Below are positions 1,582 through 63,068 of a stretch of DNA of 64,000 nucleotides, piece by piece (position 1 is the first letter of the stretch; each line of letters begins with the position of its first letter). The translations under genes were made by a program, and so were the position numbers. This DNA is from Dipteris shenzhenensis (Eukaryota), in NCBI GenBank assembly GCA_047967505.1, contig CM106538.1; one strand, written 5' to 3'. The notes below the pieces were generated by a model. The model had not been told where the DNA came from, made no database searches, and saw nothing but the letters and a program-made list of their open reading frames with translations.

Positions 1582-2751
1582 TCAACGTATTCTTTCCTGA
1601 ATAATTTTCAAAAGTTCAGAAGGGAAATCCTTTCGTAAGTGTTCGATCAAACAGTCGCTCTCCATCACCGATGCAAGATTTATAGACACAAATCTCAAAC
1701 AGGCGGCTTTTAACTGTGACGAATGATGCTGATCTGCTAAGGTAAGAGTGATGACAACATTGTCGACACTTAATTGTTCGCATAACTTCGATTCACAGAG
1801 CAGCTTCAGCCGCTCCAAACCGTATCGATCTGCTGCAGCTAACAAATGCTGAGCCAATATTGATGAATCTGAAAACGGTGATTCTGACAATCCACTATCA
1901 TCGTTCGGATAAGCATCCCTGTATATATAATGCAGCATTGCCTTGAAAACAGGTGCTGCTATGTCTACGACCGGAATGATCTTCGACGACTCGCTCTCTG
2001 CCATGGGACCAAAAAACTGCGCTCTGAACACAGGAGACCGTGCAGCAAGGATTGCCTTGTGCGCACGGAATATTTGAGAGTCTACTTCAATTTCAATATC
2101 GTAATTTACACCCGTGTCCAAGAGTTCTCCAAAATCAAGCGCTAGATTAGGCTCTGGCACACGGATGGACAAGAGCTTTGGTCTGGGGGGAGGAGAACGA
2201 ATCACGCCGAGGGTGCAAGTTAATTTAAGGCTGTCATTCTTCAAGAAATTGGAGTGGAGGAGATCAGCTACAGGGAGTAATTTGATAGCAGCAAGAGAGG
2301 AAGCTCCGGGTTTGAATGTGCAAGGGCTAGTGGAGCGTGCGCAAATTGTGTGATTGCCTTTGCCGCTCTGATCGAGTACGCTCTGATCGAGTAGAGCTAA
2401 TTCGAAAACTGCCTGGACCTCCGCTCTCTCAGTTTGAAGGGCGATGGAAACAGAAAAATAGTCAGCGTCAGTTGGTACACCCTTCGGATAGACATGGATT
2501 GCCCACTGGTACCCTCCGACCATAAAAGCTTCGCTGGAAATATACTGATCATGGGCGACAATCAAAGAATATCCAAGGATTTCGAAATCATGGCGGCCTT
2601 GGACAGCCCGCAGGTCATACGCTGAGGAGGAGGAAGAACAAATTGAGGCAGGCGACTTTGCATCTTCTTCTGCTACAAAGCCAGGATCTTCTTGCCAATT
2701 TCCACGAATAGCTTTACGAAAAGCAGCCCATCTACGCTTAGCCAAAGCCAT
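1582..2751 (-). CDS. Intronless MATH-BTB/POZ protein (BPM/SPOP-like CUL3 adaptor), 389 aa
   Basis: Single open ORF. It has MATH motifs (SEAFMVGGYQWAIHVYPKG, FLKNDSLKLTCTLGVI), BTB motifs (FRAHKAILAARSPVFRAQFFG, FKAMLHYIYRD, HLLAAADRYGLERLKLLCE) and a BACK-like tail (LADQHHSSQLKAACL). Confidence 0.92.
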   Translation of the reverse strand: MALAKRRWAAFRKAIRGNWQEDPGFVAEEDAKSPASICSSSSSAYDLRAVQGRHDFEILGYSLIVAHDQYISSEAFMVGGYQWAIHVYPKGVPTDADYFSVSIALQTERAEVQAVFELALLDQSVLDQSGKGNHTICARSTSPCTFKPGASSLAAIKLLPVADLLHSNFLKNDSLKLTCTLGVIRSPPPRPKLLSIRVPEPNLALDFGELLDTGVNYDIEIEVDSQIFRAHKAILAARSPVFRAQFFGPMAESESSKIIPVVDIAAPVFKAMLHYIYRDAYPNDDSGLSESPFSDSSILAQHLLAAADRYGLERLKLLCESKLCEQLSVDNVVITLTLADQHHSSQLKAACLRFVSINLASVMESDCLIEHLRKDFPSELLKIIQERIR

Positions 2752-2780
2752 TTGAATTGAGCTCGAGGAAGATGAACTCT

Positions 2781-2838
2781 CCTATATATTTATATATATA
2801 TATACACGTACGTACTATATATATATATATATATACAC
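2781..2838 (-). promoter_or_regulatory. (TA)n/ACGTAC tract just upstream of the MATH-BTB start; possible TATA region
   Basis: TATATA runs with CACGTAC motifs 30-90 bp upstream of the ATG. Confidence 0.3.
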
Positions 2839-3397: not shown

Positions 3398-6160
3398 CAC
3401 TACTACACACGGATCCTATTGCGACGTTTACGTACCGACGTTTAGTGCGCGGGGTGCTAATTGTCGGTATAAAAAGCGCGTCCCATAAAGCGTTGCTATA
3501 TAGTGACTTTAGGCAAACGTCACTATATAGCGACTATTACAAAGGTCGCTATATAGTGACACTGATATACTATTTTATAGCGACATTTTTCAGAGAGGTT
3601 TTTTACTCATATAGGCCTTAAAAGTTCGTTTTTTCCAATGATAAATTTTTTTAAATTTTCATACATGTTTGATCTCATAGAGAATAAAAATATGAGAGCA
3701 TGTACATCAAACCTTTGAAGCTCGTATATTCATGTCCAAGTTTGAGATGAAAAAAATCAATGAAGAGCATTTACATCAACTGTTTCATCTTGAGCCAAGT
3801 CTAAGGTGCCAAACAAGTCTATCTCCAACTCTATACTGAGTTGATCTCCTATATCATCATCGTACTTTAGCATCGTACGTTCACCTAAAACACTTGATCA
3901 TCTTCTTCAATAAAGTGTGGTGATTCTTTTGTCTTCTTCCTCAATATTGTGATCTCCATCTTCCTCCCGTGCGATGTCATTATGCGCATCTTCCTCTTGG
4001 CTCATAATGTGATCTTTATCTTCTTCGCTAGATTCATCGGGATCAATTGGATCCAGCATTGGTAGTGGCATCTCCATATCCACAGCTCTATCTTCAAAAT
4101 TTTGCTTACTTCGTGGTGCAACTTGGATCACGTACCACCATCTTGGATCAGAATGATCCGAATGAAAAACCACCTATATTGAAGATGGGTGCCAAATGTC
4201 ATCAATTATATACATGAAATTATGCTCAAGTACATGTATCAATGGATCTTCAAAAATGAAAGCTTCGATTAATTAAATCATTAGTATGCACCTACTCACA
4301 GTACTCGGGAAGAACAAAAGTATCACTTTCATCGGCCTAATGTTTGGTGGAGTCTATTGCAAAGAAACCGCTACTATCTTTTCTCACTGTCGCATGGGGA
4401 CCGTTGTAAATAGTTCTAAACCATTTTACATCAAGAATGAAAATACTAAATTGTCTGAAATCAACTTCATAGATTTCGCGTATGGTTCCACAATAATCCA
4501 ACTGTGAGGAGAGAAGAAGCACTTGCTCGGCTATCTTGTGTGAAGTTAGCCATGACTCCACAATCATACATGACTCTCTTTGAATCGATGCGTTCCACGC
4601 GAAAATGTCATCCATATGACCATAATGCACCGTGACTCTCTTTGAATCGATGCGCTCCATGCGAAAATGTTGTCCATATGACCATAATGCACTGTACTTT
4701 TTGTACTATAAAAGAGCATCATTAAAACAATGAAGATGCATCTATTTTATAACGTATATTGCCACAAATAATTACTTAATTATGTCAAGAGGTAAGAAAC
4801 TTACATGCACCCTACATCTAGATGATAACTCTTGCTCGCGCTCGTTTATTGTCTCTCCATCGCGTTCGGCTTAACGTAGCGCCAGTTGTAGCCAATCAAG
4901 TAACATGTGAGTTGGGAGAAGAGCCATATCCCGTGGATATGGTTGCGATCGCCTGTACATTACTCTGAATCTCGTCCTTGCATTTATTCTTTCTGCTTTG
5001 GCCACTTCATATCTCTCAATACACTTCTGCATCTCAGGGCTATTGAGGATACAAAACTTATTGAATTTCTCCATTTGCTCTTCGCTCATCTTTCTTTCAA
5101 TCCCTTTTCCTTGGGGAACCTTGCCAATGATGCAATCATCATCCTTGTTATGCCAAGCTTGCGGCATATCGGGATTTGTGGATGCAAGAAACTTCGTGAT
5201 ATATACTAATGACTCTTGCATAAGCCATCCCTCTACCATGCTTGCTTCTAGTCTTGCTCTTTGTCTTACAAATCCCTTTAAAGTTTTCATAAACCGCTCG
5301 AGAAAAAACATCCATCGACTATGAACGGTACCTGCAATAGCCACCCCATCAACTATGTGCACAAGCAAGTGGACTTGAGTTGTCATAATGCTCGAGGAAA
5401 AGCGCTTCTCAAGCAAGCATATGGCTTCGATGGATTCCACCCTAGCCTTCTCGACTCTCTATATGGAGATCTCTTTTTGAGATATCCACCTATTTCACAT
5501 GTCCATGTAAGATATTTTCATAATCAGTCTACAGATTAATCAGCTTAAATTGAAGAAAATGCAATTAATGCGATTTGATAGTAAGCATACCTCACAATAC
5601 CATAGATCTTGAATATAGCATTTCTAACATCTTCTTATAAGCACCCTTTTATTGTAATTGGGAGGATGAACTATCAAAGTAACAAAGAAGTCATGTCAAT
5701 AATATAACATAATCATAATTATGCTAATGCATCACGATTATCGGTATACTAATTCTACAGCTTAGAATACTTGTAAGAACTTGTGCCAATCATGGGACTT
5801 GAGCCCACTAAGCTTATTGTCCTTTGAAAATGCTCCTTTCAAGCAATGCATGTACCCTATCGGTGTTTGGAAAGAGGCAATGTCCACCTTGACCACTGCC
5901 TCCTCCCTTGTAGAGAGGATCCACGTTGCTTTCGGGAGGACAACTTTTCCCGAAGCATGCACTTGGAGCCACAAACGAGACATCCTATTCATAGCACGCA
6001 AATCTTTTCGCACTCCTCTCGAGTCTTTGAAACCAACCAAGTGTGCCCAAATAGTAGCCCCCACATTCTTGAAGATATGCATGGGATCCAAGAGATGATT
6101 GATTTGTAACTGACCCCAATAAGGAAGCTCATGGAAGATCGATAGCCTCTTCAATGTCCC
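3398..6160 (-). mobile_element. CACTA/EnSpm transposon, 3' part: terminus plus decayed Tnp2/TnpD transposase exons
   Basis: CACTA terminus at 3398 with subterminal TATAG(C/T)GAC repeats in both orientations (3490-3585). Exons encode LPYW..HLLDPMHIFKN and GLKSHDWHKF (Transposase_21-like), VHLLVH..WMFFLERFMKTLK (DUF4218-like) and YCGTIREI..VKWF / WWYVIQVAPR (DUF4216-like). Confidence 0.88.
4571..4694. repeat. 62-bp tandem duplication inside a CACTA exon
   Basis: TGACTCTCTTTGAATCGATGCG... starts at 4571 and at 4633. Confidence 0.9.
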
Positions 6161-6906
6161 ATGCTTGGCTATAAGAAGCTCTTCATGAAGCTGAAGATGA
6201 TGAAGAGGATGTAATTGATCAAGAGCAGAAACTTGTGGTCGGATGTATGCCACATGTAAGTTTTTTACCTTTTTACTTTATTTGAGTATTTATGATCACA
6301 ATCACTACAAAATGCATCCTTCTTTCCTTGCAGTTAGATTATTTTGGGACCATACGTGACAAATGAATTGATTAAAAGCTAATATCTTTGTTTTTAAGCA
6401 AATGTTGGTAGATGCTTATATATGTATATATTTTTACTTAAGCATAAATGAATATAACTACTAGCACCTAATTTGTATCTTCAACGTACATGGTCTTTCA
6501 TCCAGATCGTTTGGATCGAAGATGATGGTATGTGGTCCAAGTTGCTCCTCGAAGCAAACATATTTTTGAAGGTAGGAATGTGGATACAGAGATGCCGACA
6601 GAAGATCCAAATAATGATGCCAATGGATCTAGGGAAGAGGATGAAGATGATGATATGGCCCATGAAGAAGGTGACAATAATGACAATGTAATGGAGGAAG
6701 GTGGAGATCATGACTTTGGGGAAGAAGAGGGGGAACTAGACACCGGTGAACTAGAGGATCAAGTCTTAGGTAGACATACAATAGGGGATGATGATGTAGG
6801 TGATCAATTGTATGTAAACCTTGAGATAGACATATTTGGCATGCAAGACTTGGCTCAAGATGAAGCCGTCGATGTAAATGCTACTGATTCATTGTTTTCA
6901 CATTGA
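6161..6906 (+). mobile_element. Second, diverged CACTA transposase 3' fragment in the opposite orientation
   Basis: The + strand reads EALHEAEDDEEDVIDQEQKLVVGCMPH|gtaag, ttgcag|LDYFGTIRD and VFHPDRLDR..YVVQVAPRSKH plus an acidic tail. These parallel the minus-strand exons at 3907-4870. Confidence 0.8.
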
Positions 6907-25399: not shown

Positions 25400-28290
25400 C
25401 TTCCTGAGTCTAGAATCATGCAAATGAAAGGTAGGCATTCACATGATGGATTGGCATATGTTAGGTGACATACATGCAACAAGAGGGAATCTAGAGGCTC
25501 CTAAGGCTCTCAACATAAAGAAGGTGACATTCAAGGGGATCAAAAGACACTAAAGGATGATCTAGTGTTGAGAGGCTTCATGCAGTGGAAGATTTGCCAA
25601 GGACAGGGGGGAAGTCGATGGATGGGAATTCACACACTTGTGCTTTGATGGTTGTAGATACTTGGAAAATAATGGGCAAAAAGGAAAAAGTTCTAGTCAA
25701 TTCTCAAGATAAGAAGATGGAGGAGTTTCTATCGAAGGTTAAGACCCTTGAACTTTTGAGGAGTGAAGGTGTGTGTCATGGTTCAGAGGCTAAAGCAATT
25801 GCTTGTTTGGTGGTTGAGGATGGCATCGAGGAAATTATGACCGATGTAAATCACCAAAAAAGGGTACTTGAAGAAAAGCCATAGAATAAGAAATCGTTGG
25901 AGGATGAGGTCCTGAATTGGTTGTGTCCAAAAGGATTAAGAATATGGCAAGGAATGCTATAAATGGAAAAGAAAATAGGTTCAATTTCCTATGTGATGCC
26001 TACAAAGCATTGGCTCAATAATGGAGCGCATGAGCGGAATGATTTTGTGGAATGTCTTCTTTATGCTACTACAAAGTCAAGCAAAATGATTGTGTCTCAG
26101 CTCTTCAAAGGTGGAATGCTGCAATTGTCCTTCTATAAGAGGTAAAGTGTGATCTTGATAAGGGTGTTTAGCTGGCATTTTATTAGATATGGTATGGAGT
26201 TTTTTTCAATTTTCTTGTGAGGGGTAGAGGGGGAATCATTGTGCTAATGAAGAGACCGATGGATGTGTCTAATGATGCTCAAGTCCATAGGGAATGTGGG
26301 AGGATTCTTAATGAGACAATGTTGGGGAGAAAATGGGTGTTAGGGAAGATAGATCTCATGCTGTCAAGGGGTTGTCATGTTTGGAATCAGAGGTTTAGGA
26401 GGAATGGTGTCTGGATAAGGGGTTGATTGACTATATTAAGCTAAACCATGAGGGGGTTTTCATGGAGTAATATGAGAAAGTGGGTGGATTTTAGAGCAAT
26501 TAGAATTGACAGATTTGTTGAAGTTTACAACCTTGATTAATTTAGATAGCCAAGATGTAGTGCCAAGCAATCAAGGGACTCCAAGCATTGGGATTTGTTC
26601 TTCAACCCCTTGAGATATTGTATTGTGATTGAACAATATTTTGTGATATTTGCTTTTTTGTTATAGACTCTATGTTGTTCATATGAGGTTCATAATTCTA
26701 TAAACATGATCTTGAAATAAATTGACTTTTTTACAAGTGCATCCTAAACCCTAAACCCTAAACTAGTAAGGAATGGTTGAAATCATGTTTAAAGAGAACA
26801 AAGTATCATTTTTAAAACATTCTTAGTAGCAAATTACAATATTCCTCTGTATCAGAGTTCTCTCACCAAGATAATTCCCAACTCTTATAAAATAGCATGA
26901 CAATGCTATGAAATAGCCATAAAGCATTATTTGAAAATAAGAGGAGGAAAAGTTGCACTTGGAGGATACCATTATGTAAGTGGCACAATGACTTGGAAGA
27001 GTAAAAAGAAATTTGGCATCCAAACGTTTGAGATGCTGAATGCTTTCAATAATGTTTACATGGATGTAGAGAATTTGCAGAGAGCCATGGTCAAATTCTA
27101 TGGGATGAGAGAAGAAGGTAAGAGAAATTCCCTCTTCGCATTCAACTTTACTTCATCTCATTTCTATATCCTTACTATATTTCTCTTTTGTTGTACAAAT
27201 GGCAAGCTAGTATTTGTTATAAAAATGGATGAAGCTCTGTTGGTAAAAGAGCACACAAGCTAGAGAGGGTGAGCATTTGTATTATGAATGATGCCTTACG
27301 TTTTGCTCAAGGGGATAAGGAAGTTGAGCAGGGTTTCTCAGTCTAATTTGAGAAGGACGTATGGTGGCTTGCAGCCTTTGAGACCCCAAAAGAGTGCCAC
27401 GAGACATTGAAGTGGGTTTTGGAGATAACCGGCATTTCATTGATTATTCAGAGACAAGAGACAGGGCAAACATTAATAGTGGATGGGCATGGAACGTTTC
27501 AAGTTGAATGGTATCTAGCTAGTGATTTGAAGACCCTGAAGTGCTTGTATGGTTGTGATATAGGTGTAGATGCAAAATGGACATGCTTGTATTGCACCCA
27601 CTCTTAGAAGATGCAAAGGGAAGCCTACAGTGGGAAAATGGCATCCTTTCTTGCAACCAAAGTGCAGCCCTTGATTGTCACAAAATAGATCCTAAGTGGG
27701 ACCCCATTCTACCGATTCCATTGGAGCAGGTACATGTGTGTAGTTTGCGTGCTGATCTGTGTATACTTGATAAGTTACTCTATCTCCATCTAGTTTATGA
27801 TTGGAAGTTGAGGCCACAGCAAGTCTCTACCTGATGCATTGTAAAAGCTGAAGAACTATTCTCACTAATGGGACTTCACGGAGGCAATGTGAAGCATAAG
27901 CAAAATAATAAACAATTAGGAAAGACACAAAATCTTCTTGCTAAAGTGTCCATGGGTGGAAGAAAGGCAAGGAGGTTCTTGTCCAACCAGAATGCTAATA
28001 AAGAAGAACATACATTAGCTCAAAGCACCCTAGGTTATGAGTACTAGAAAGCTTTGTGTGAGTGTGCTTCACATCCACAAATTTCTACTTTGAGAGCAAA
28101 AATGTGGAAAAAGATTGATGCATTTATAAAGTTGTTTAGACAAGGTCAAATAGATTAGCTTTATTATAAGAGATTCAGGACAAGGTCAAATAGATGAGCT
28201 TTATTATGAGAGATTCAGGACAACATTGGGAGCATTCATATCATTGATGGTAGAAGCATGGGGGGGGTCACATATTACACATTACATGGT
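25400..28290 (+). pseudogene. Decayed DDE transposase, Transib/RAG1/Chapaev-like
   Basis: Reconstructed across stops and frameshifts: VIKMDEA (D at 27228), LASDLK (D at 27524), WTCLYC (27578-27595), VHVCSLRADL, SMGGRKARRFL (27949-27981) and HITHYM|gt (28271-28290). The 5' boundary is approximate. Confidence 0.65.
28141..28220. repeat. 40-bp tandem duplication within the transposase relic
   Basis: CAAGGTCAAATAGAT starts at 28141 and at 28181. Confidence 0.9.
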
Positions 28291-28428
28291 AGATTCATGC
28301 CAACAACAATTAAAGTTACAAAATACAATGACAGTATAAAATAAAATTTGTAAAAGAACACAAAATGGAACACTATATAAAAAGTATATTTGTATTCATA
28401 TAAAATAAAATTTCTATACAATAAGGCT

Positions 28429-29159
28429 TCATAGCCTTTCTCTCTTCTCTAAAACATTGAGAATATCGGGCTTTGAATTCCCAAATAGACTCCGCTCTAA
28501 ACCTAGTCTCGATAGGGTGTCAATGCTATTGTTGTTGCTACTAGCCAGGGACATGGCTGTTGTCGTCAATGCCATACCTTGAGAATTGGTTCCAAAAGCA
28601 TTGAGGGCAGCCATGCGGTTCACCAAAATGACCTTGTAAGCATTTTCGGCTCTTCATTGTAGATGTTGGGCTCATCTATAGAAATAAGAGGATCAAAAAG
28701 GGCAGGGGTAGGGTTAGGGCTTGAGGTCGAGGCCTCCTCTTCCATTTGTCCCTCCTGGAGAATGAAAATAAAGGACATTTCCTAGGATAAGAACCTATTT
28801 CCCCTATTTTTGATGACTCCACATGCTAGGAGGTCATCAGTGTCCACCTCCCTAAACCCTAGGGGTGTGAGCTGGGCTCGAAAGTGATCTAAACACTTCA
28901 TGAACTTGGGTTCTTGATTGAACAAGTACTTCAAATAATCAATTGGGATCCATCTTTTTATAGACTCATCAAGTTGATATGCAAAACTCACAGTGTGGTC
29001 TTGCATGTACTTGATGAGGTCTTCAAAATCATCTTGCGCTCGCAAGTAGGTGCCTAAGACATCTACGCTCTTATCAAAGACTGAAAATAACTACTTCTCT
29101 CTGTCAACTAATGGAGTATGAGAGATGAAATCGTGGAAGGCAGACCTAGCAGAGTCCAT
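28429..29159 (-). pseudogene. Disrupted ORF of unknown function, convergent with the transposase
   Basis: ATG at 29159 (MDSARSAFHDFISH), TATA-like run ~70 bp upstream, protein-like 87-aa core (28782-29045), internal stops. Confidence 0.45.
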
Positions 29160-29359: not shown

Positions 29360-31150
29360 TCAAAATCCACAATTGTTCCACCCCACATTATTTACCATCT
29401 TCAATATTGCAGGAGGGATAAAAGTGGCACTATGCATGCATTTCTCTACACACTTTCCTACCTTTTCACAATTTAAGGTAAAGTGAAAGGACTCAGGCAT
29501 GCCATCCTCCATGACCAATAGGTGTTCCCACATGTCCCTGAGAGTCCATTGTGATGTGATGGTCACATTTTTGACATCTCCTAAATGAGAATCAATACAT
29601 AAACTTACCCCTATATTATCATCATTGATAGAGTAAAAGGAGAGCCAATTTCCACCTATTTTCTTCCAGCACCTATATTGGAAAGCAAAATATAACATTT
29701 GGTGGGAGATGTGGTACTTGACAACCACATTGTCCTTACATGGCATTAAAATAGATCACCCTTTTCTTCACGTGACCTACTTCCCCAATCACCCTAGATC
29801 TCATGTAGGCACTTGCATGACCACATGGTTTTTGTTCTGTGCATTTGGATATTCTGAAAACAAGAAGCTAAAATGTGTAGAGGCATAAACCAAGACAACC
29901 TTACCCATTTAGAGCCAAATGTAAACTGCATGGCCATGCCCACATCCTTTGCAATCTTTCCCTTTTATGATTGCACTGTTCTTGTGTCCACCATGGTGCA
30001 ATCCATGTCTTTAAGTTGTGGTGTTGCAATGCATTAAGAATGGCCATATCCTCATGCCATCCTTTGAGTAATGTACTTGGCATTATATCAATAGATATTT
30101 CTCTATTTCAAAGGAGAGGACTTCTCTCCAGCATGCATTTGCCTTCCTAAATCCTCATGAATGGCAGTAAACTTACCTAAGAAGCACTCGATTGGTTCCC
30201 ACTCCTCAAAGTTTGAAGGAAATACATTTGCTATTATGCACAAGTTCTATTTCAAAATAATATTTCAAACTGATTCATTACACTTAGAAATCTAACACAA
30301 AATGTAGACTTACAATGCAATGGTATTGTCGATTGCTTGCTTGATGAAGTAAGGCACATGTACTTCCCCATGTAGATGTGTTGCGCCTTTGCAAGCCATC
30401 CTTTCTTCCCAAGCTTGAACTTCATGATGTGGCCCTTCCATTCATGCAAAAGATCACATCTCTTGGGAAGCTTATGTGGACCCTTGGCAGATCCTCTCAT
30501 GAGAATATCCAATCATTCAAGCTGTAGAAGGCACCCATTCACCCAGTGCATTTTTGCTCCTGTGGGACATAGAGGACATGTATGGTCTCCTTGCCATGCT
30601 TGTACAGAGGTCAAAACAACAAGAGTGGACCTGAAAGTGTAGCTTGGAGGGAGAGAGTAGCTCTGATAGAGGGAGAGAGAGGGAGAGGGGGGGAAGGTAT
30701 AGAGGGTGCAACTGAAGGTGGAGAGCAGCTCCAAGAGGTGTTGTAGCTAGGGATGGAGGGAGAAAGACCAAAGGGGGATGAATAGCTACTCCAGGCGGTT
30801 TTGTAGCTAGGAATGGAGGGAGAAAGAGCCGAGGGGCCACTACAGGAGGTACTATAGCTAGGAATGGAGGGAGAAAGAGTAGAGGGGGATGAGTAGCTAC
30901 TGTAGGAGGTGTTGTAGCTAGGAATGGAGAGAGAATAAGAAACTACTACAAGAGGTGCTCGAGAGGGAGAAAGACAGTGGACCAGAGTAGGAGGGGGCAG
31001 AGAAGCTGCCAAATGAGATCCCACATAAGCTGGACCAGAGAAGAGGAGGGGGTAGGCCTGCAACAAGCTGATAGGGGGAAAAAGTTGCCCAGAAGCATAC
31101 ACCACCTCTTGAATGACTTGTAGGATTGTTTGGGGGAGGTGCATGTGGGA
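29360..31150 (-). pseudogene. Disrupted multi-exon gene: Ser/Pro repeats, CPLC motif, BAH-like domain, possible C-terminal ubiquitin-like domain
   Basis: The GT-AG intron 30313-30231 joins WKGHIMKFK..WLAKAQHIY..PLHS to NVFPSNFEEWEPIECFLGKFTAIH in frame. The C-terminal segment reads VTITSQWTLRDMWEHL..PESFHFTLN. Confidence 0.5.
30640..30950. repeat. Imperfect 51-60-bp tandem repeats (SPSIPSY on the minus strand)
   Basis: (G/A)TAGCTAGG(A/G)ATGGAG at about 30743, 30803, 30854 and 30914. Confidence 0.8.
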
Positions 31151-34769: not shown

Positions 34770-37700
34770 TCTATATGACTACATTATTGCACGAAAAAGA
34801 ACATAGTGTCTTATTTGATGATGGGAGCACCCATGTTTTCATTTTGCAACGTTTAGTTAAAAAGTTAGGGCTCCCAACCATCAAAACAAAATATAAAGTC
34901 AAATCAGCTTTTCAAGGATTGAATTATAATTGTTTGCAAATGGTTAAGGATCTTGAGGTGACTTTAGGGCCATTAGTTGAGAGCCGTGATTTCTTAGTCG
35001 CTCCTTTGCAAGAGCAAGATCTCATTCTAGGGATGCCCTAGCGCATTGATCATAATGCCAAACCTGATTATCTTGAACGCACCATTACTGTGACTCAAGG
35101 CACTGAGACTATGACTCTAGAATGCGACAAGAATCTTCCCTCTTGGCCTATATTGTCACATACCCAAGCTAAAAGAGCTTTGCGCAAACGTGAGAAGACA
35201 TATTTGGTTATGGTCAATAAGATTGAGGCTAGTCCTGAGACTAAGAAAACTAAGCCAGAGCCTCTGGATCCTTTTCTAACTACCTATGACGACTGCTTTA
35301 TGGAAGACTTACCCCCTGGCCTACCTCAATCTAGACCCGAGGATCATAAGATTGACCTTATTCCAGGTAGCGCACCACCGCGTAAACCACCATATAGACA
35401 CAATCCTACTGAGCAATAAGAGATTCAATTCAAAATAGAAGATCTTTTGGCTAGAGGCCTAATTCGACCTAGTAGCTCACCATTTGGGGCACCTATTCTT
35501 CTTGTCAAGAAGAAAAATGGAACTTTTCAAATGTGCATCGATTATCGTGCCTTAAATAAAATCATAGTGAAAATTTGATACCCCATTCCGAGAGTTGATG
35601 ATCTACGCGACAAGTTGAAAGGATCCACAATCTTTAGCAAGATTGATCTTAAGTCAGGATATCATCAAGTGAGAGTGATCGAGCCCAATGTTTTCAAGAC
35701 TGCTTTTAGAACCCAAACTGGTCACTATGAATTTCTTGTTATGCCTTTTGGATTGACCAATGAACCTGCCACATTTAGTCATATGATGAATCGTATCTTC
35801 CTACCCTATCAAGACTTTGTGGTAGTTTTCTTTGATGATATCATGATTTATAGCAAGAGTCGAGAGGGACATGAGAAACACTTGGATCTTGTTTTCTCTC
35901 TCTTATGTGAGAACCAATTGTATGCCAACCCAGAGAAAAGTTCTTTTTTCCAGCCTGAAATTGAATATCTTGGACACATTGTTTCAGCTGAAGGCATTCG
36001 AGTACATCCCAAGAAGGTAGAAGTGATAGTAAATTGCTGGCCATAGCCTAAAGATATCCATGAGTTACGATCTTTTCTAGGTCTGTGTAGTTTCTATCGT
36101 AGATTTGTTAGAAAATTTGCACACAAGGCACATCCATTGACCGAACTACTGCGTAAGACTCGTGCTTTCTCTTGGGGTGAGCAGCACACTTTAGATTTTC
36201 AACGACTTAAGGGTGCAATGACGGACACACCAGTTTTGACCATGCCGGACTTTACAAGACCCTTCTTTGTCATGGTCACTGATGCTAGTGGATAGGGTTT
36301 TGGGGCTATGCTCATGCAAGATAACATCCAATTGCATTCGAGTCATGTAAATTAAAACTAGTAGAGCTAAAATCTTCCATGTATGATAAAGAATTAGCCG
36401 CTATGGTGCATGCCTTTAAACTGTGAAAACACTATCTTATGGGTTTTGAGTTACTCATTAAGACTGATCACCAGAGTCTTAGACATCTCCTTACTCAACC
36501 GGTAATTTCGGATCAGCACATTAAATGGGCTACCTTTATTGACAGTTTTAAACCGATGATCCAATATCAACTAGGCAAAGACAATGTAGTTGCCGATGCA
36601 CTGAGTCGTCAACCTAGCATAAATAATATCTCAGTCATCGAGGGAGACCCTTTCGAGCCTATGAAGGTAGACTATCCTATTGATCGAGACTTTTCAAAAA
36701 TTTGGCATAAGATTAAGCAAGCTAATAGCACCCCTATGGCCTCTTATTCCATTCATAATGACTATCGGTAATAGAAGAGGTACATCAGCCACCCTACATG
36801 GGACATAAAGGCGTCGCTGCTATGTATCACACTATAATTCAAGATTTTTTATGGCCTAAGCTTAAAGTTGATGTTGCAACTTTTGTTGCACAATGTCTTA
36901 TTTGTCAAAAAGTCAAGAGCTACAAGGGCAAATATCAAGGTTTACTTATGCCTTTACCAATTCCTGATGGCCCATGGGAGTAGATTTCTATGGACTTTAT
37001 TACTGGATTTCCTACGACTAGCTCAGCTTTTGATATGATTTGGACTATCATTGATAGATTTAGCAAGCAGGCTTACTTTATTCCTTGTAAGAAGACCTTG
37101 ACCGCAGTTCAGGCTGCTCATTTGTTCATCAAGCACATCTTTATACACCATGGCCTTCCAAAAGTAATCGTGTCAGACCGGGATAGTAAATTTTATAGTA
37201 ACTTTTGGACCGCACTCTTTGACAATCTTGGTACGAAGTTAGATTTTTCCACTGCTTTTCATCTTGAGTTTAGGCCAAATTGAGGTCACACAAAATACTA
37301 TTTGTGACATGTTACGTTCTTATGTGTTTGGTCAGCCAGGCCAATGGGACAAATTTATACACATATAACAATTTGCCTACAACAACACTAAGCACTCTGC
37401 TATAGGCAAATCTCCATTCCAAATTGTCTATGGAAAGACCATTACTACTCCATTGACCCACCTTAAGCACCAAGTAGAGGCTACTGATCGATTTACTAAA
37501 GATTTCTCTAGCATTTTGGCTACTATAAAAAAGAATATCGAGCATGCTCAAGCTGTGTATATTGCACGTGCAAACAAGGGTAGAAAGAAACTTATATTTG
37601 CTAAAGGCGACCTAGTCATGTTATGTATTGAGAAGCGTAGACTTAAGAGTATTGAGACACAATTAAGTTTGCCCCTAAATCCTATGGTCCCTTTAAAGTT

Positions 37701-38450
37701 TTGGAGTGCATTAATGACAATGCCTATCGGCTTGAATTACCACCCGATTGGAAAATTCATAATTCTTTTCATATGCACCTCCTGAAACCTTTCCATGGAG
37801 ACCCACCAGTTCGACCTATTTTTGACGATGCACCGTTGCTTCAAGGAGAGACCTAGCTCTTAGAGCCAGACCAGATCATTGATCAACAAATCACTCAAAT
37901 GAGACATGGAAACTTGTATCCAATTTATCTTCTTACATTTAAGAACCACCCGGTTGAGGATGCTAAGTGGATGCCCGAGCGATATTTTCGCCAATACCCT
38001 GATTTATTGACTACTTTTTTGTCATGCAATCGAGGGCAATTGCGATTTCAAGCAAGAGGGATATTACGAGAATTAGAATTATCCCATTAATTTAATCCTT
38101 TAGTATTTAGTTTAGTGAGATCCAACATTTTTATCGCGCAGCTGATGTATGTGTGCTCACTGTTCCGTAGTGATGCATGTGTGCCCCTACATGGCTGGAT
38201 ATACGGCTGTGGCTCTATGAGTGTGTAGCATTGTGTGCACCACTTACGCGATGACAGTATGTGTAGCATGTGTGCACCATTCGTATGATTTTATTCATGT
38301 GTAGCATCAGGTGCACCATGAGATGGTATGTGTCACATGTGTGCACCATTCATCTGTGATTTATTGATTTTGTGTTGCTATAATACTGAAAGGTTGATTG
38401 ATTGTGGTGATTAACTCCAAGGTTATATTATGCTTGAAATATTTCATTAC
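34770..38450 (+). mobile_element. Degenerate Ty3/Gypsy chromovirus: PR-RT-RH-INT-chromodomain and probable 3' LTR
   Basis: VLFDDGSTH, KIDLKSGYHQV..VFFDDIMIYS, TDHQSL..VADALSR, MDFITGFP..IVSDRD and chromodomain YLLTFKNHPVEDAKWMPE. Purine tract at ~38050-38061. Confidence 0.9.
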
Positions 38451-49030: not shown

Positions 49031-52000
49031 TCAAAAACAAGTAGAGAACACTTCAAGGCTAGTAGCATCCAAATCCCTTGCAGCAAAACTGTCATGTAAG
49101 GATTGCTTGAGGGACATTCTGAAGAAAATATATGCCTGAGGAAACTGTTGACCCATCCTAGAATGCAGTCTCTGTGTCCAGATGGTCCATAATACCCAAA
49201 AGGGAGTCCAATGAAAGAAAAGGAGTAATGGAGACATCTGAGATGAGAGGCATCCAAACATCCAGAAAAGTTTCCCAAATCTGCTAGAAGGGAACCGAAG
49301 CCGCAGTAAATGAGAAACATGAGTGATCAATGTGCGAGAGTGCGGGCAAAACCATAATAAGTGAGGAACTGTCTCGCGGGGATGAGAGCAACGGGGGCAG
49401 AAAGGAGAAGCAATGCGGCGTGCTGCCAATTTCACCCCAATGGAAAAGGCTCCCACTATACATCTCCAAAGGAAAAGCCTCTGTTTCAATGGCAATTTGG
49501 CTTTCCAGATTTTCATGAGTCGGGATTGCCACCAAGATAAAGGCCTATCCAAATTCCAAAGAGTGTTGGCATGCTTGTCAATCCATGGCTGTGGAAGAAG
49601 AAATCTGTAAACCTTCGAGGAGGTCAGATTGTGTATTGAGAGCGTATGGGTAGCAGGAGGTATGGAAGTCAAATTCCAGTCCATTAATCTGTCTTGTGCA
49701 AACAGTGGAGGAACCGGAACAAATGGCTGCAACATAGTTGAAAGTGTTCTCCAAATGGATCTATGATGCAGACCCAAGGAGAATGTCCTGCAAGCTTGTG
49801 GAAATGAAAGTGTATAGCCTTGTTGATCCACAACATCACCAACAAATCTTATGCCCAATTTCATGAGATTATATGCTTTGATAGGTGCCTGTAAAGCGAG
49901 AGGCGATGCAAACACCTTGCTCCAATGGATGCTTTCCAATCGAAAAGAATTACCATGATGAGAGGAAGCACCTGTCCATTTTGCATATGAAAGAATTCTC
50001 TTCCAATCATGAAGAAAAGCAGTAGAAACAGGGCAACCAGGAATTTTTCCCTGAAAGGAAGATAAAACTGCTTCCCAGTGATCTGTAATCCAATGCCCAT
50101 ATGCATGGGAAGCCATGTTTCCACACATAGCTGCTAACATAATAGCCCATGGTTGTTTTTGCTGAAAAAAATCAGCAATCATAGTGCTCTTTCTTGCCAA
50201 CATATGAACCTGGAGATTGAGAATATTCAGCCCCCCATGAGTCTTGGGTGAACAAATAGACTGCATAGGTAGTAGTCGCAAAGCTTTTTTATGAGATTTG
50301 CTTTTCCAAAGTATCTCCATAGCTTGGGACATATAAGAAGCCAAATGCTTGAAAGACCAAGGAAGAAGAGGCAAATAAAATTGCACATATGCCATAATGA
50401 TGGACTGTACTATCCGGAGTCGAACATGTAAAGGCCAAGTGGACAAATGCCAGTATTCCAGCTTCTTGTTGATCTTTTGAAGCACCCATTTGAGCTGTTG
50501 TTGCGGAGTAATATTCCAGCCAATGGGGTATCCGAGATGTCTGACAATAGTAAGGGAAGAGATAATGTGGCCTGGCCAAAAAAGTGCATGCCAATCAGCT
50601 TCTTTCAAAGCTAGAAGTTTTGATTTCTGAAAATTGATATGCAGTCCAGCAGCTATGCCAAAATCATTCAGTGTATGCATCAAACGAGAAAGATCACTTT
50701 GAGAATTCCTTGGCATGAAGTATGAATCATCAGCATAGGCCTGTGCAAGAAAAGACTGTGCCCCTGGAATTTGCAAGCCATGAAGCTGTCCTGTATCTGC
50801 CAGATAGTCCATATGCAAGAGTAACGGATGGGTAGCAATGGCATACAGTAAGGAACTAAAAGGGCAACCCTGTCTCACTGAGCGAGTCATAGTCCAGGTT
50901 CTTGACAACCCACCACCAAGCAAGCACTGTGCCGTGGCGTGAGAATAAAGCCAGTAAATGATGTGGACGAGTCGAGGGCCAAATCCCAATTTTTGCATAG
51001 TTTGAGAGATGAAATCCCAATGGACAGTATCAAAAGCTTTCGCAATGTCTACTTGCAGAATGAGAACATCTTGTTTAGAATATTTGGCATACTCAATCGC
51101 AAGCAAGGCATTGGAGATATTGTCAGTGATCTGCCTTCTGGGGACAAATCCATACTGCCTAGGATGAAGTCCTGCTTGCAAGAGGAAGCGAACCCTGAGG
51201 ACAATCATTTTAGCAATGAGTTTGTAAATGACAGGCATGAGGGATATAGGCCGCCAATCAGCCATCGTCTCACACAACCTTTTTTTGGGAATCAATTTTA
51301 CTAGGCCATGTTTCCAGGATGGAGGAAGAGATTGTTCTGCCCAAGCATGATTGATCATTAGAAGGAGAGTGTTCTTGAGATCACCCCAAAATGCACGGAA
51401 GAATTCAACAGTCAGTCCATCCCAACCAGGGGAGCTGCTTTTGCGTAGATGACTCAAAGCATCTTCCAGTTCACTAAGCATAAAAGGCTGCTCCAATGCA
51501 TGGGCCTGTTCCCGAGATACTATGGGCTGAACATGCATAAGGAATTGAGACCTGGCTGCATTTACTTGCATCAAATGATCAGGTTGAGAAGAAAGGAGAT
51601 GCTGAAAATGACTAGAACATTGCAATTCCAAGTCTGATTTGGAAGTGGTCCAGGTGCCATCAGCTTTCTTGATCCTGCAAATATCCTCCTTTCGCCTATC
51701 CGCATGGAGACTTTTAAAAAAGGCTTTGGAGGAGCAGCCCTTATCCAAAAGGGGTTTCATACGAGCTCGGATTTGCCACTTCTTTAATTTGCGAAGATCA
51801 TTTTGATGAATGATATGAACCGCATAAGCACAAGAATCCTGTTCAGAAGAAGTAAGCTGCCTATGAGAACTGATTGCATCCATTTGCTGCTTGTGGGATT
51901 GAGCCCATTTTATCTTGAGCCGAAGGTTTTCCATGTAACTCCGTCCGTAGTCTTGAATAACAGCCTGTAAGCGATGAGCAAGACTGATCCAAGCAAAATC

Positions 52001-52849
52001 CATATCCTCCTGAGCATGTAAGAGGAGGGGACGGACAGCCACTCTCACCATGTTCTGAAATTGTTGATGAAGCAAGTAGGCACTATTAACATGGAGCAAG
52101 CGATGACCAAAAAAAGGCATATCATCTGTCAGACGTGCTATTGATAATGTCAAGCATACTGGAAAATGATCAGATAGCAGGAGGGAGTGATCAATCCGCA
52201 ATGTACATGTAAAATCAGCATACTGCTGAGCATGCAGTAAATACCATCTGTCAAGTCGAGCCCAGTAATGAGTAAAGGCATTGTGATGATATGTATAACC
52301 CATATCTGTGTCCCTTGTTGAGAGCCATAGATCTTCTGCATGCAGAGATGAGAGCATATCTTCCCAATGTCGGAGCTCAGTGGGGATCATGTGAGAGCGA
52401 TGAGTAGTATTGTCTTGGGAGGCAGGCGAATTGTTAAAGTCTCCACACAAAAAAGCATTGGAAAGCCATGGATATTGTTTGAGGGAGGCCCACATTTGAG
52501 CTCTAGTCGCAGAAGTTTGTGAGGCATAAACAGATGCTATTTCATAGAGAGTATCCTGCCAGGTGCACCTGATCACCATCCATCGACCCTGAGGATCATT
52601 GTGGGCCACGGTGGGCTGTATATCATGTTTTACCAGCATGCAAACCCCCGAAAAGTGCATTGTACCAGCATAAAAAATATCATAACCAGCATAGTGGCCT
52701 TGCTGGCCAGCCAAGAAGTGTTGGTTGTGTTCTTGTAAGGAGATCACATCGGGATGCATTCTATGTACATAATGCCAGAAAAGTCTCCACTTATTGACAT
52801 TGCAAAGACCCTGAACATTGTATGTAATGCAAGTAATTGAAGTAGACAT
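49031..52849 (-). CDS. LINE ORF2: AP endonuclease, reverse transcriptase, C-terminal zinc finger (1272 aa, uninterrupted)
   Basis: YNVQGL, LQE, GDFN, RLDR, SDH; WRPISL, DIAKAFD, VRQGCP, YADD; CPRC..HLLWFC. Confidence 0.97.
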   Translation of the reverse strand: MSTSITCITYNVQGLCNVNKWRLFWHYVHRMHPDVISLQEHNQHFLAGQQGHYAGYDIFYAGTMHFSGVCMLVKHDIQPTVAHNDPQGRWMVIRCTWQDTLYEIASVYASQTSATRAQMWASLKQYPWLSNAFLCGDFNNSPASQDNTTHRSHMIPTELRHWEDMLSSLHAEDLWLSTRDTDMGYTYHHNAFTHYWARLDRWYLLHAQQYADFTCTLRIDHSLLLSDHFPVCLTLSIARLTDDMPFFGHRLLHVNSAYLLHQQFQNMVRVAVRPLLLHAQEDMDFAWISLAHRLQAVIQDYGRSYMENLRLKIKWAQSHKQQMDAISSHRQLTSSEQDSCAYAVHIIHQNDLRKLKKWQIRARMKPLLDKGCSSKAFFKSLHADRRKEDICRIKKADGTWTTSKSDLELQCSSHFQHLLSSQPDHLMQVNAARSQFLMHVQPIVSREQAHALEQPFMLSELEDALSHLRKSSSPGWDGLTVEFFRAFWGDLKNTLLLMINHAWAEQSLPPSWKHGLVKLIPKKRLCETMADWRPISLMPVIYKLIAKMIVLRVRFLLQAGLHPRQYGFVPRRQITDNISNALLAIEYAKYSKQDVLILQVDIAKAFDTVHWDFISQTMQKLGFGPRLVHIIYWLYSHATAQCLLGGGLSRTWTMTRSVRQGCPFSSLLYAIATHPLLLHMDYLADTGQLHGLQIPGAQSFLAQAYADDSYFMPRNSQSDLSRLMHTLNDFGIAAGLHINFQKSKLLALKEADWHALFWPGHIISSLTIVRHLGYPIGWNITPQQQLKWVLQKINKKLEYWHLSTWPLHVRLRIVQSIIMAYVQFYLPLLPWSFKHLASYMSQAMEILWKSKSHKKALRLLPMQSICSPKTHGGLNILNLQVHMLARKSTMIADFFQQKQPWAIMLAAMCGNMASHAYGHWITDHWEAVLSSFQGKIPGCPVSTAFLHDWKRILSYAKWTGASSHHGNSFRLESIHWSKVFASPLALQAPIKAYNLMKLGIRFVGDVVDQQGYTLSFPQACRTFSLGLHHRSIWRTLSTMLQPFVPVPPLFAQDRLMDWNLTSIPPATHTLSIHNLTSSKVYRFLLPQPWIDKHANTLWNLDRPLSWWQSRLMKIWKAKLPLKQRLFLWRCIVGAFSIGVKLAARRIASPFCPRCSHPRETVPHLLWFCPHSRTLITHVSHLLRLRFPSSRFGKLFWMFGCLSSQMSPLLLFFHWTPFWVLWTIWTQRLHSRMGQQFPQAYIFFRMSLKQSLHDSFAARDLDATSLEVFSTCF

Positions 52850-52896
52850 AAAAGATATGTACAGTCAAACCAAAAGGCAGAATAAAGTGTAAACTG

Positions 52897-60633: not shown

Positions 60634-63068
60634 TGTTGGAGATAAGTGCACACTAAGTGTACTATTTCCTAGTCTAAGTCTAAGTCTAGTCTTTATGTCT
60701 TGAGTGTGTGCCATGTGGCACTTCTACAATTATCCCATAAACACTCTTGCATTATGTCTTGTACTTTGGCCCATATATTCAATGGGTCACATCATTCTAA
60801 TCAATCAGTCTAGCTTGTGTCTTGTCTACACTTTTCTCAAGGTATTTCTTGTCTTCTAGTCTTGTCATTTCATTTCCATTTCCAGTTTCTAGTTCTAGTT
60901 CTTTTTCATATTCCCACATGGTATCAGAGCTAGATTGATCCCTCTTCTCCCCCCTCAGTCTGCTGTAGCCATAGCTGCCTCTTCTCAGATTTCTCCCCCG
61001 CTCAGCTGGTCGCCATCTTCCTCTTCTGCCCGTCTTCTCCACGCTGCTGCCGTCCCTGCTGCCGCTGTAAATCTGCCCGCCATCTCTCTTCCAGATCTGC
61101 GCGCCAGATCTGCACGCCATTGCGCTGCCAGATCTGTTGCGCAGTTCCATTCTCTACCAGATCTGCACGTCAGATCTGCGCAGATCTGGCGCTGCTGTAG
61201 CTTCCGCTCCTGCTGTCGCTCAGCCAGATCTGAGCGCCAGATCTGCTGCCACCGACAAATCTGCGCAGCATCCATCTCTGCTCTCCGTACGACCGCCGCT
61301 GTACGCCACCGTACTTCGTTCGTCCCCGTCCGTACTCCGTCGTCAGTACTCTACACCATCGTCCGTACATCCGTACAGTCCGTACGACTGTACGGAATCC
61401 GTACCTGTACAGGCTGAAGACTTCTTCGACTTCATCTGCCTCTTTCAGTTTGCTGAACAGTCTCCTTTTTTGCTGGTTCCTCCTACTTCGATGGGCTGTC
61501 ATATGCTATGGCCCTGACAAAGTGGTGAGAGAACCGGCTTCTGGGATCTCTTCCTCTCATTTATTTTCTGCAATATTGTAAGGGAATAGACACTGCCCTT
61601 GCATCCTAGCAAGAGGTAAGACCTTCCCACATGGCATCTTCCTCTCATTCTCTCATATCTATCGACAAATTCAATGGGTCCAACTTTCATACTTGGCAGA
61701 TCAAAATCAAGTGCCATCTTATGAAAGAAGGCCTTTGGGACATTGTTCACCGTGATGCTCCCGAAGGTCCATCTGAGCAAGTTGTTGCTGCCAAGAACGA
61801 CAAAGCCTATGCTATCATATTGCTCGGCCTTGGAGATGATTACATTCATCACATCTCCGACATACAGTCTGCTCCTCAAGCATGGATCACTTTGGACACT
61901 CTTTTTGGAGCCCGATCTAAAAACTCTAAGATTGCACTTATGATCTCATTTTTTGATCTACATATGCAGGAAGGAGCTACTATAGCCTCTCATGTCAATT
62001 ATCTTCGCAGTCTTATGGTTCAGCTTGCATCAGTCAAGTCTCCCATCTCCGAAGATATTGCTATTGCTGTGCTTCTCAAAAGCTTACCTGACTCCTATGC
62101 TACTCTTGTCACTACCTTCAAGTATCATAATAATCCTTCTCTTGAGGGAATCATCAATGCTCTCCAAGAGGAAGAAAGAACTCAACAACGCAAGGTAACT
62201 GACACTGCATTTTTAGCAAAGAAAGGCAGTTCTAAGGTAAGAAAGCCTTGCACCCATTGTGGCAAGACTAATCATGTGGAGAAGGACTGTTTCAAGGCTC
62301 ATCCATGCACCATTTGTGGCCGTGATAATCACCGGGAGAGGGACTGCTACTCCAAAACCTCTACATCAGCTCCTGCATCTACCTCAGCCCATGTTGCTGC
62401 AACATCTCCATCAGCTGATCCTACTGTTCCTTCCTTACATGATGAAAAGTGGGCTTTCTGATTACTTCTATGTTTTGTCTACCACCTTGACCACCGATGA
62501 TGTAGGTCAAGGGGTTCTAGTGTCTTGGTCTTTCTATTTGTCTACAGTCAGTCTTCTGTCTATCTAGTCTTGTCTGTCTGTCTATTTGTCTATCAATCTG
62601 ACTGTGTTTTAGATCCATCTTGTCCCTACCCTTGTGGACCCATATGAGGATATCACTTGAGGAGGGGTGTCTCAGGATTTTTTGTCTGTCATGTCTTCTA
62701 TCTTGTCTCTCAGTCTATCAGTCTTTATGTCTGTCCTCTAGTCTTGTCTTTCTGTCTTACTCCTAGTGTCCACTTAAGGAGGGTGTTGGAGATAAGTGCA
62801 CACTAAGTGTACTATTTCCTAGTCTAAGTCTAAGTCTAGTCTTTATGTCTTGAGTGTGTGCCATGTGGCACTTCTACAATTATCCCATAAACACTCTTGC
62901 ATTATGTCTTGTACTTTGGCCCATATATTCAATGGGTCACATCATTCTAATCAATCAGTCTAGCTTGTGTCTTGTCTACACTTTTCTCAAGGTATTTCTT
63001 GTCTTCTAGTCTTGTCATTTCATTTCCATTTCCAGTTTCTAGTTCTAGTTCTTTTTCATATTCCCACA
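60634..63068 (+). mobile_element. Gag-only (TR-GAG-like) LTR retrotransposon, very recent
   Basis: 285-bp LTRs at 60634-60918 and 62784-63068, identical by eye. Perfect PBS TGGTATCAGAGC at 60919-60930; PPT AAGGAGGG at 62776-62783. No pol. Confidence 0.96.
61631..62461 (+). CDS. gag: Copia-type Gag, 276 aa, intact, with two CCHC zinc knuckles
   Basis: DKFNGSNFHTW, QAWITL and LLKSLPDSY; knuckles CTHCGKTNHVEKDC and CTICGRDNHRERDC. Confidence 0.93.
   Translation: MASSSHSLISIDKFNGSNFHTWQIKIKCHLMKEGLWDIVHRDAPEGPSEQVVAAKNDKAYAIILLGLGDDYIHHISDIQSAPQAWITLDTLFGARSKNSKIALMISFFDLHMQEGATIASHVNYLRSLMVQLASVKSPISEDIAIAVLLKSLPDSYATLVTTFKYHNNPSLEGIINALQEEERTQQRKVTDTAFLAKKGSSKVRKPCTHCGKTNHVEKDCFKAHPCTICGRDNHRERDCYSKTSTSAPASTSAHVAATSPSADPTVPSLHDEKWAF

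Follow-up and report, generated by a model that had tools for sequence, protein, structure and literature searches.

RAG1, which cuts and assembles antibody genes, descends from Transib-type transposons. The CMCT group (CACTA/Mirage/Chapaev/Transib/Lanisha and RAG1) shares a signature of Asp, Asp and Glu plus two Cys and three His, and the C(2)C and H(3-4)H motifs lie between the second Asp and the Glu across the group (Kojima, 2025, PMC12730594). Transib elements are 3-4 kb long, encode a single transposase of ~700 amino acids (aa), make a 5-bp target site duplication and have 38-bp ends with a CACAATG heptamer and a nonamer (PMC1131882). Their transposases share ten conserved motifs with the RAG1 core (Kapitonov and Jurka, 2005, PMC1131882). 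RAG-like transposons have a convergent gene arrangement (PMC9435367). The cut-and-paste superfamily Lanisha was put forward for elements of the moss Ceratodon purpureus (Carey et al., 2021; PMC8245031; bioRxiv 10.1101/2020.07.03.163634). Here we compare with these systems the remains of a transposase gene in a 64,000-nucleotide stretch of DNA from the plant Dipteris shenzhenensis (contig CM106538.1 of assembly GCA_047967505.1), which is referred to as the window.

Our analysis indicated that the relic is very probably a decayed copy of a two-gene cut-and-paste DNA transposon, with an Asp-Asp-Glu (DDE) transposase of the RAG1/Transib-like CMCT group. The placement reaches the CMCT group, and membership in Transib proper is not established. 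The transposase pseudogene occupies 26808-28291 on the plus strand and contains four in-frame stops, three frame changes and one 40-bp tandem duplication (Table 1). Eleven relatives were compared with the whole window by tblastn. They produced linked matches from 26808 or 26955 to 28291, with expect (E) values of 1e-62 to 3e-66 for full-length queries, and no matches below E 0.01 elsewhere in the window. The relic corresponds to residues ~337-728 of P0106, a relative of 813 aa.

A preliminary description of this window quoted five peptides in support of a Transib/RAG1-like transposase. In the sequence and the list of open reading frames (ORFs) all of them are located on the plus strand, where it had placed them. 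VIKMDEA, with the first catalytic Asp, is in the frame of the ORF 26901-27263. The peptide LASDLKTLKCLYG..WTCLYC is in the ORF 27347-27607. It contains the second catalytic Asp (codon 27524-27526, peptide ASDLKTLKC) and the CxxC motif at 27584-27595, with Cys codons 27584-27586 and 27593-27595. VHVCSLRADL and SMGGRKARRFL share a single frame, 27559-28156, which is cut by a TGA at 27832-27834 and by a TAG at 28045-28047. The relatives have Trp at the position of this TAG and Gln at that of the TAA in the second frame (tblastn alignment). HITHYM, followed by a GT donor, ends the recognizable coding sequence. The invariant His of the Cys..His motif is replaced by Arg (CGT, 27748-27750), as had been noted, and is His in 40/40 aligned relatives.

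The reading frame slips near 27248, near 27607 and through the tandem duplication at 28138-28223. The locus had been described as containing introns. This holds for the GT after HITHYM, which is at a conserved intron position; judged from the sequence, the other frame changes appear mostly to reflect decay and not splicing. The in-frame insertion at 27117-27191 starts with GT (27118-27119) and has no AG acceptor at the required place. It may be a degenerate intron or a plain insertion. In tblastn searches with the relatives, the first ~330 residues and everything beyond ITHYM were not found in the window. The exon with the catalytic Glu, which the preliminary description had likewise failed to find, gave no match in the whole window at E ≤ 10. 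Because ~330 N-terminal residues and the last exon, with H-x4-H and the Glu, are gone, and because of the four stops, the three frame changes and the substitution of the His by Arg, the window copy cannot work. It is a dead fragment, truncated at both ends and without function. Three CCTAAAC units, of the plant telomere type, are located at 26743-26763, about 45 bp upstream of the first transposase similarity.

The relic belongs to a family with intact members. An exhaustive phmmer search was required because a word-indexed protein search with P0001, the 199-residue middle frame of the relic, found no relatives. Searching 1.84 billion representatives with the same query, phmmer identified 72 proteins at E ≤ 1e-3, 34 at E ≤ 1e-10 and three at E ≤ 1e-30, with the best match at 1.9e-46 and 63% identity. 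Most of the matches are fragments. A second search with P0106 yielded 36 long relatives. Relatives are encoded in 35 metagenome loci; they are many divergent copies with 24-90% identity, and the intact ones have ~800-900 aa. The P0106 search gave only three named relatives, 'hypothetical proteins' from the fern Adiantum nelumboides. These models match over 12-24% of the query only, and unrelated Pfam domains are present in two. An unannotated family of the RAG1-related group thus occurs in land plants, in Dipteris and in this fern. Pfam searches with six reading-frame pieces of the relic and with the joined frame P0001 gave no match, and the family currently has no Pfam model of its own. Two short members in the cluster of P0038, P0076 and P0077, are labelled as coming from transcriptomes of the dinoflagellate Prorocentrum and the green alga Pyramimonas. 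They may indicate that the family is transcribed in protists, or they may be contaminants.

The intact relatives contain the full CMCT signature of Asp, Asp and Glu plus two Cys and three His. Three alignments were used, A2 with 40 rows and the C-terminal alignments A3 (22 rows) and A5. In A2 the first Asp (D379 of P0106, motif VLKLDE) is conserved in 37/40 rows and the second (D476, motif WHLAGDLKTLKC) in 38/40. Each Cys of the CxxC motif (C496 and C499), 20 residues past the second Asp, is present in 36 of the 40 rows, and the Cys and His of RVHxCTLH (C556 and H559) are present in all 40. The family alignment also conserves the basic motif GGxKARxF. In A3, H-x4-H is followed by GSLxIWSTQGMEKSH, and both His and the Glu in the latter motif are found in 22/22 rows. 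Intact copies therefore have the downstream His..His/Glu segment that the preliminary description had expected of them. The relatives carry the complete Asp-Asp-Glu triad, with C(2)C, H(3-4)H and one additional His between the second Asp and the Glu. The two Asp are retained in the window relic, from which the Glu exon is missing.

The same comparison revealed the conserved intron. Among the gene calls with a residue in the column after ITHYM, 29/34 have Val, 4/34 His and 1/34 Met. A Val at this position is a read-through GTN codon, which therefore points to a conserved intron there. The intron is missing in four loci, and these forms continue with His. We located the exon after the conserved intron in 28 of the 35 metagenome loci by tblastn.

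Structure prediction connects the family to RAG1 and Transib. Modelled by AlphaFold2 with A2 as the alignment, P0106 has a mean predicted local distance difference test (pLDDT) score of 78.3 and a predicted template modelling (pTM) score of 0.65. In the model D379 is in strand 371-384, D476 comes right after strand 465-475 and E753 is in helix 750-766. This predicted placement of Asp, Asp and Glu, in strand 1, at the end of strand 4 and in a helix, is an RNase-H-like layout. A Foldseek search of the Protein Data Bank (PDB) with the model gave 48 matches at E ≤ 1e-3, every one of them to RAG1, Helicoverpa Transib or amphioxus RAG1-like structures. The lowest E value, 4.8e-11, belongs to 6dbv_A; 4wwx_B has a target-normalised template modelling (TM) score of 0.49, and Transib 6pqn_B has one of 0.54 with E 2.7e-7 and a root-mean-square deviation of 7.9 Å. 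The hAT transposase Hermes comes next, at E 2.2e-3 and a TM-score of 0.26. In predicted structure an intact relative is thus closest to RAG1, Transib and RAG1-like proteins and not to hAT or MULE. The model has the three-dimensional fold of RAG1 and Transib, a feature that is not exclusive to Transib. A search with language-model features of P0106 residues 320-813 ranked RAG1 clusters first (score 0.96, 200/256 features). When the 86-aa Asp/CxxC piece was used alone, Transposase_21 and Plavaka clusters ranked above RAG1. A match to the RAG1 fold places a protein in the CMCT clade and not specifically in Transib. At the level of this group, the predicted fold and the catalytic signature of the intact relatives support the membership in Transib/RAG1/Chapaev that had been proposed.

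Our analysis also revealed a second gene. L025 and L018, the longest loci at 6.1 kb each, contain a transposase gene split by small introns and, tail-to-tail downstream of it, another ORF of 619 or 404 aa. Together the two genes span at least 4.7 kb. By tblastn, the second gene is downstream and convergent in nine loci (L025, L013, L029, L018, L004, L012, L021, L014 and L005). It belongs to no Pfam family. The protein search with it found a single protein, 99% identical, which is the query's own cluster, and a PDB profile search gave one chance match. Its AlphaFold model has a mean pLDDT of 51.4 and is mostly helical, with a confident part at about residues 150-275. Foldseek found 0 matches at E ≤ 1e-3 for this model, and the insignificant top ones are winged-helix regulators. 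A RAG2-like partner was rejected, since there is no Kelch or PHD signal, the helical model is of low confidence and no Foldseek match reaches E ≤ 1e-3. In the literature covered on Transib, Novosib and Lanisha, we came across no account of a RAG1-like family in plants that has a convergent partner gene.

A trace of the partner gene is present in the window. We built a profile of its C-terminal exon from eight metagenome loci and searched it against 2681 six-frame pieces of the window. The minus-strand piece at 28432-28653 was the top match and the sole one below E 1 among the 2681 pieces; by tblastn the trace has E 0.079. It is located where the convergent gene is expected, ~140 bp beyond the end of the relic at 28291. 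The distance from the THYM codons to the codons of the KIILVE motif is ~725 bp in L025 and ~357 bp in the window. The shorter distance therefore means that the last exon of the transposase, with the catalytic Glu, is deleted in the window copy. Next to the trace is a 102-aa open frame on the minus strand (28782-29090) with no Pfam match. It was not accepted as the first exon of the partner, with the profile search blank there and an hhalign probability of 0.8%.

Mobility of the family is inferred because its copies are many, divergent and decayed. The partial matches of the Adiantum models and their unrelated domains also speak for a mobile element rather than a host gene. Elements of the CMCT group have 5'-CA..TG-3' termini and target site duplications of 2-5 bp. 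Inverted-repeat searches in the eight longest loci gave low-complexity or internal repeats only. A perfect 16-nt pair in L005 (399-414 and 5032-5047) was not accepted as element ends, as the outer parts match poorly. All-against-all blastn of the loci found related copies, none of which marks an element boundary. Just beyond the start of the second gene, direct and inverted repeats of 22 nt and of 37-80 nt are clustered in L018 (5051-5291) and L004 (5009-5257). These could be subterminal repeats of the element; a counterpart at the opposite end was not found.

Several results weigh against the assignment to a two-gene transposon of the RAG1/Transib-like CMCT group. In the eight longest loci we identified no convincing terminal inverted repeats, and target duplications were not found. 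L019 extends 918 bp past the transposase, a part in which the second gene had no match, and the partner match in the window spans only ~46 residues. The Pfam RAG1 family (PF12940) was matched weakly by one of 10 long relatives, by 2/22 sequences (best E 0.0038, 15.8 bits vs a cut-off of 25) and by 0/17 last-exon translations. PDB sequence and profile searches with the window piece, P0106 and three family profiles found no RAG1 or Transib and gave only coiled-coil or chance matches. The fold match to RAG1 is not specific, as no members of the group other than RAG1 and Transib have solved structures, and the training of AlphaFold2 included RAG1 structures. HHpred also ties ESTA, another CMCT lineage, to RAG1 (Kojima, 2025, PMC12730594). 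The preliminary description had paired motifs of the relic with those of RAG1, and the weak Pfam RAG1 match covers only the last stretch of these pairings.

Within the CMCT group, the family may be Lanisha or a close relative, a reading that we regard as quite possible if tentative and that would refine rather than contradict the CMCT assignment. The reference for Lanisha is reportedly Maumus, McDaniel and Carey, Repbase Reports 2020, with GenBank entry MT647524. In the literature covered, Lanisha is, apart from CACTA, the only CMCT lineage described from a land plant. Our family likewise occurs in land plants (the window and the fern) and is named by no Pfam model, and C(2)C and H(3-4)H are, by its published description, motifs of Lanisha as well (PMC12730594). 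However, Lanisha is described as 'showing similarity to EnSpm' (Kojima, PMC12730594), and our family shows none to Pfam EnSpm models or to the CACTA relic in the window. It is somewhat unlikely that the family truly belongs to the Transib superfamily or is a sister to it, which is how the title of the preliminary description would be read in a narrow sense. In favour of this, the structural and language-model searches rank RAG1 and Transib highest, and RAG1 is the only Pfam family matched by more than one member. The spacing of the two His in the family is H-x4-H, compared to H-x3-H in the CACTA relic of the window. In RAG1 the spacing is also H-x4-H (H937/H942). Transib-like proteins are known from plant assemblies (PMC9435367). 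Plants were reported to lack Transib (Kapitonov and Jurka, 2005, PMC1131882), a statement that is outdated because 39 Transib-like proteins from plant assemblies have been described, with Juglans, Capsicum, Hordeum and Silene among the species (Tao et al., 2022, PMC9435367). These proteins, together with CACTA in plants and Lanisha in moss, also contradict the view of the preliminary description that the broad group is known mainly from animals. For our family, however, sequence similarity is under every threshold in the Pfam and PDB searches, and the ends and 5-bp duplication that define Transib were not found in the loci searched. Two genes that together take up 4.7 kb or more, and transposases of 800-900 aa, also differ from the 3-4 kb single-gene elements (PMC1131882). 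A screen of 1007 plant genomes in 2025 sought Transib through Pfam domains (PMC12973397), and our family would escape such a screen. It is unlikely that the family is neither Lanisha nor ordinary Transib, but an ancient unclassified sister of Transib/RAG1-like elements in land plants and metagenome eukaryotes, with a convergent partner that is not RAG2. Novosib, a superfamily centred on plants, was considered as a further alternative.

A very divergent CACTA/EnSpm transposase, or one of Mirage or Chapaev, is very unlikely. CACTA elements also encode two proteins. They are abundant in plants, with one relic in this window (4337-6277, minus strand), and the ranking obtained with the 86-aa piece points in their direction. 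However, the full core puts RAG1 clusters first in the language-model search, and Transposase_21, DUF4218 and Plavaka were matched by 0/10 long relatives (E ≤ 10), 0/22 (E ≤ 1) and 0/17 (E ≤ 10) in Pfam. The CACTA relic of the window scores DUF4218 at 3.3e-21 under the same method. Comparison by hhalign of the family profiles with two CACTA pieces of the window gave a probability of 0.2% each, a weak test with single decayed templates. Extremely improbable is a domesticated host gene family, a plant 'RAG1-like', of which the window would hold a dead paralogue. In favour of it, no element ends were found, and divergent copies have kept their catalytic residues and the position of one intron to a high degree. 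Active transposons also conserve catalytic residues, however, and single assemblies contain many divergent copies. Decayed copies exist, both in the window and in loci with in-frame stops, and the gene pair is located on short, unrelated contigs.

If the relic derives from a two-gene transposon of the CMCT group, the intact transposase would contain an RNase-H-like core with Asp, Asp and Glu and a large helical insertion between the second Asp and the Glu. The insertion would be pinned by CxxC and H-x4-H, which form a zinc site in RAG1, and would contain one more invariant His. By analogy with RAG1 and Transib, the enzyme may bind the inverted ends of the element as a dimer and nick them. Hairpins formed on the flanking DNA would then free the element, which would be reinserted with a short target duplication. 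The conserved tail-to-tail second gene presumably assists the transposase.

The range of RAG1 relatives bears on the origin of the machinery that assembles antibody genes. If the family is distinct from Lanisha, it would be a new plant branch of the RAG1-related clade and a second example of the two-gene layout. If it is Lanisha, the data would supply a catalytic signature, a fold prediction and a partner gene for a lineage that has barely been described. Were it an unclassified sister lineage, the RAG-like two-gene layout would either have an independent origin or be much older and more widespread than its occurrence in animals and a single pelagophyte alga. For genome annotation, such copies currently go unlabelled or, as in Adiantum, are merged into the models of host genes. 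The family is moderately interesting; the window copy is ordinary debris.

The window is ordinary plant DNA. Other features in it include a CACTA/EnSpm relic, in which the minus-strand piece 5762-6277 has an LDPMHIFKNV-type motif and no Pfam match, and a long interspersed nuclear element (LINE) that may be a young copy. Their coordinates are listed with those of the transposase relic and the partner trace in Table 1.

Table 1. Positions of the transposase relic, the partner trace and other features in the 64,000-nucleotide window
Feature	Coordinates	Strand	Details
Upstream-most recognizable part of transposase	26808..27116	+	~residues 74-159 of P0003, before the catalytic fold; TGA 26898-26900 (tblastn, ORF list)
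In-frame insertion of ~75 bp vs all relatives	27117..27191	+	Gap in tblastn alignments
Strand with first catalytic Asp	27192..27248	+	Asp codon 27228-27230, peptide VFVIKMDEA; aligns to D379 of P0106
Second frame	27248..27607	+	TAA 27344-27346, second Asp, CxxC; tblastn identity 42-53%
Third frame, helical insertion domain	27610..28156	+	Cys..Arg, GGRKARRF; translation P0001, phmmer, alignments
Tandem duplication	28138..28223		40 bp, 2.2 copies, 93% matches, shifts frame (Tandem Repeats Finder)
Last coding piece	28181..28290	+	Ends ..AWGGSHITHYM at 28288, then intron GT 28289-28290 (tblastn, conserved intron position)
Trace of partner's C-terminal exon	28432..28653	-	Peptide ..AYKVILVNRMAALNAFG..; exon profile E 5.8e-4
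MATH-BTB (BPM) gene, apparently intact	1582-2781	-	399-aa uninterrupted ORF; MATH, BTB, BPM/SPOP BACK domains
CACTA/EnSpm transposase relic	4337-6277	-	Piece 4871-5458 matches DUF4218 at 3.3e-21
Phytocyanin-like ORF, 135 aa	22166-22573	+	Plastocyanin-like domain, E 1.2e-7
Tandem repeat, 60 bp, 3.6 copies	30729-30935	both	Within long proline-/serine-rich open frames on both strands
Gypsy-type reverse transcriptase pieces, copia-type gag ORF	35042-37785 and 61610-62461	+	Retrotran_gag_2 at 5.5e-33 (gag)
LINE, unbroken 1277-aa ORF	49031-52864	-	Endonuclease, reverse transcriptase, zf-RVT

Compared to the described systems of the CMCT group, the family combines shared and separate features. With CACTA/EnSpm it has in common the broad clade, the motif logic and the occurrence in plants. 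It differs in having no Transposase_21 or DUF4218 match and in its His spacing, H-x4-H instead of the H-x3-H seen in the CACTA relic of the window. Lanisha is, in the available descriptions, likewise a cut-and-paste CMCT lineage of land plants with C(2)C and H(3-4)H motifs; it is said to resemble EnSpm, whereas our family does not detectably do so. The RAG-like transposon ProtoRAG also pairs a transposase gene of the RAG1 fold with a convergent, tail-to-tail second gene. Its partner is a Kelch propeller, and the second gene of our family has no Kelch or PHD signal.

The closest comparison is with the RAG1 core, Helicoverpa zea Transib and amphioxus RAG1-like structures (4wwx, 6dbv, 6pqn and 6b40). 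Unlike these proteins, the family has a longer N-terminus with a predicted single helix of ~85 residues and a partner gene that is not RAG2-like, and sequence similarity to them is not significant in the Pfam and PDB searches. The two catalytic Asp are 97 residues apart in the family and 108 in RAG1. The predicted fold matches over ~570-730 columns, with Foldseek E values of 4.8e-11 to 2.1e-5 and target-normalised TM-scores of 0.41-0.54, and the catalytic elements run, as in these structures, from Asp through Asp-CxxC, the conserved His and H-x4-H to Glu.

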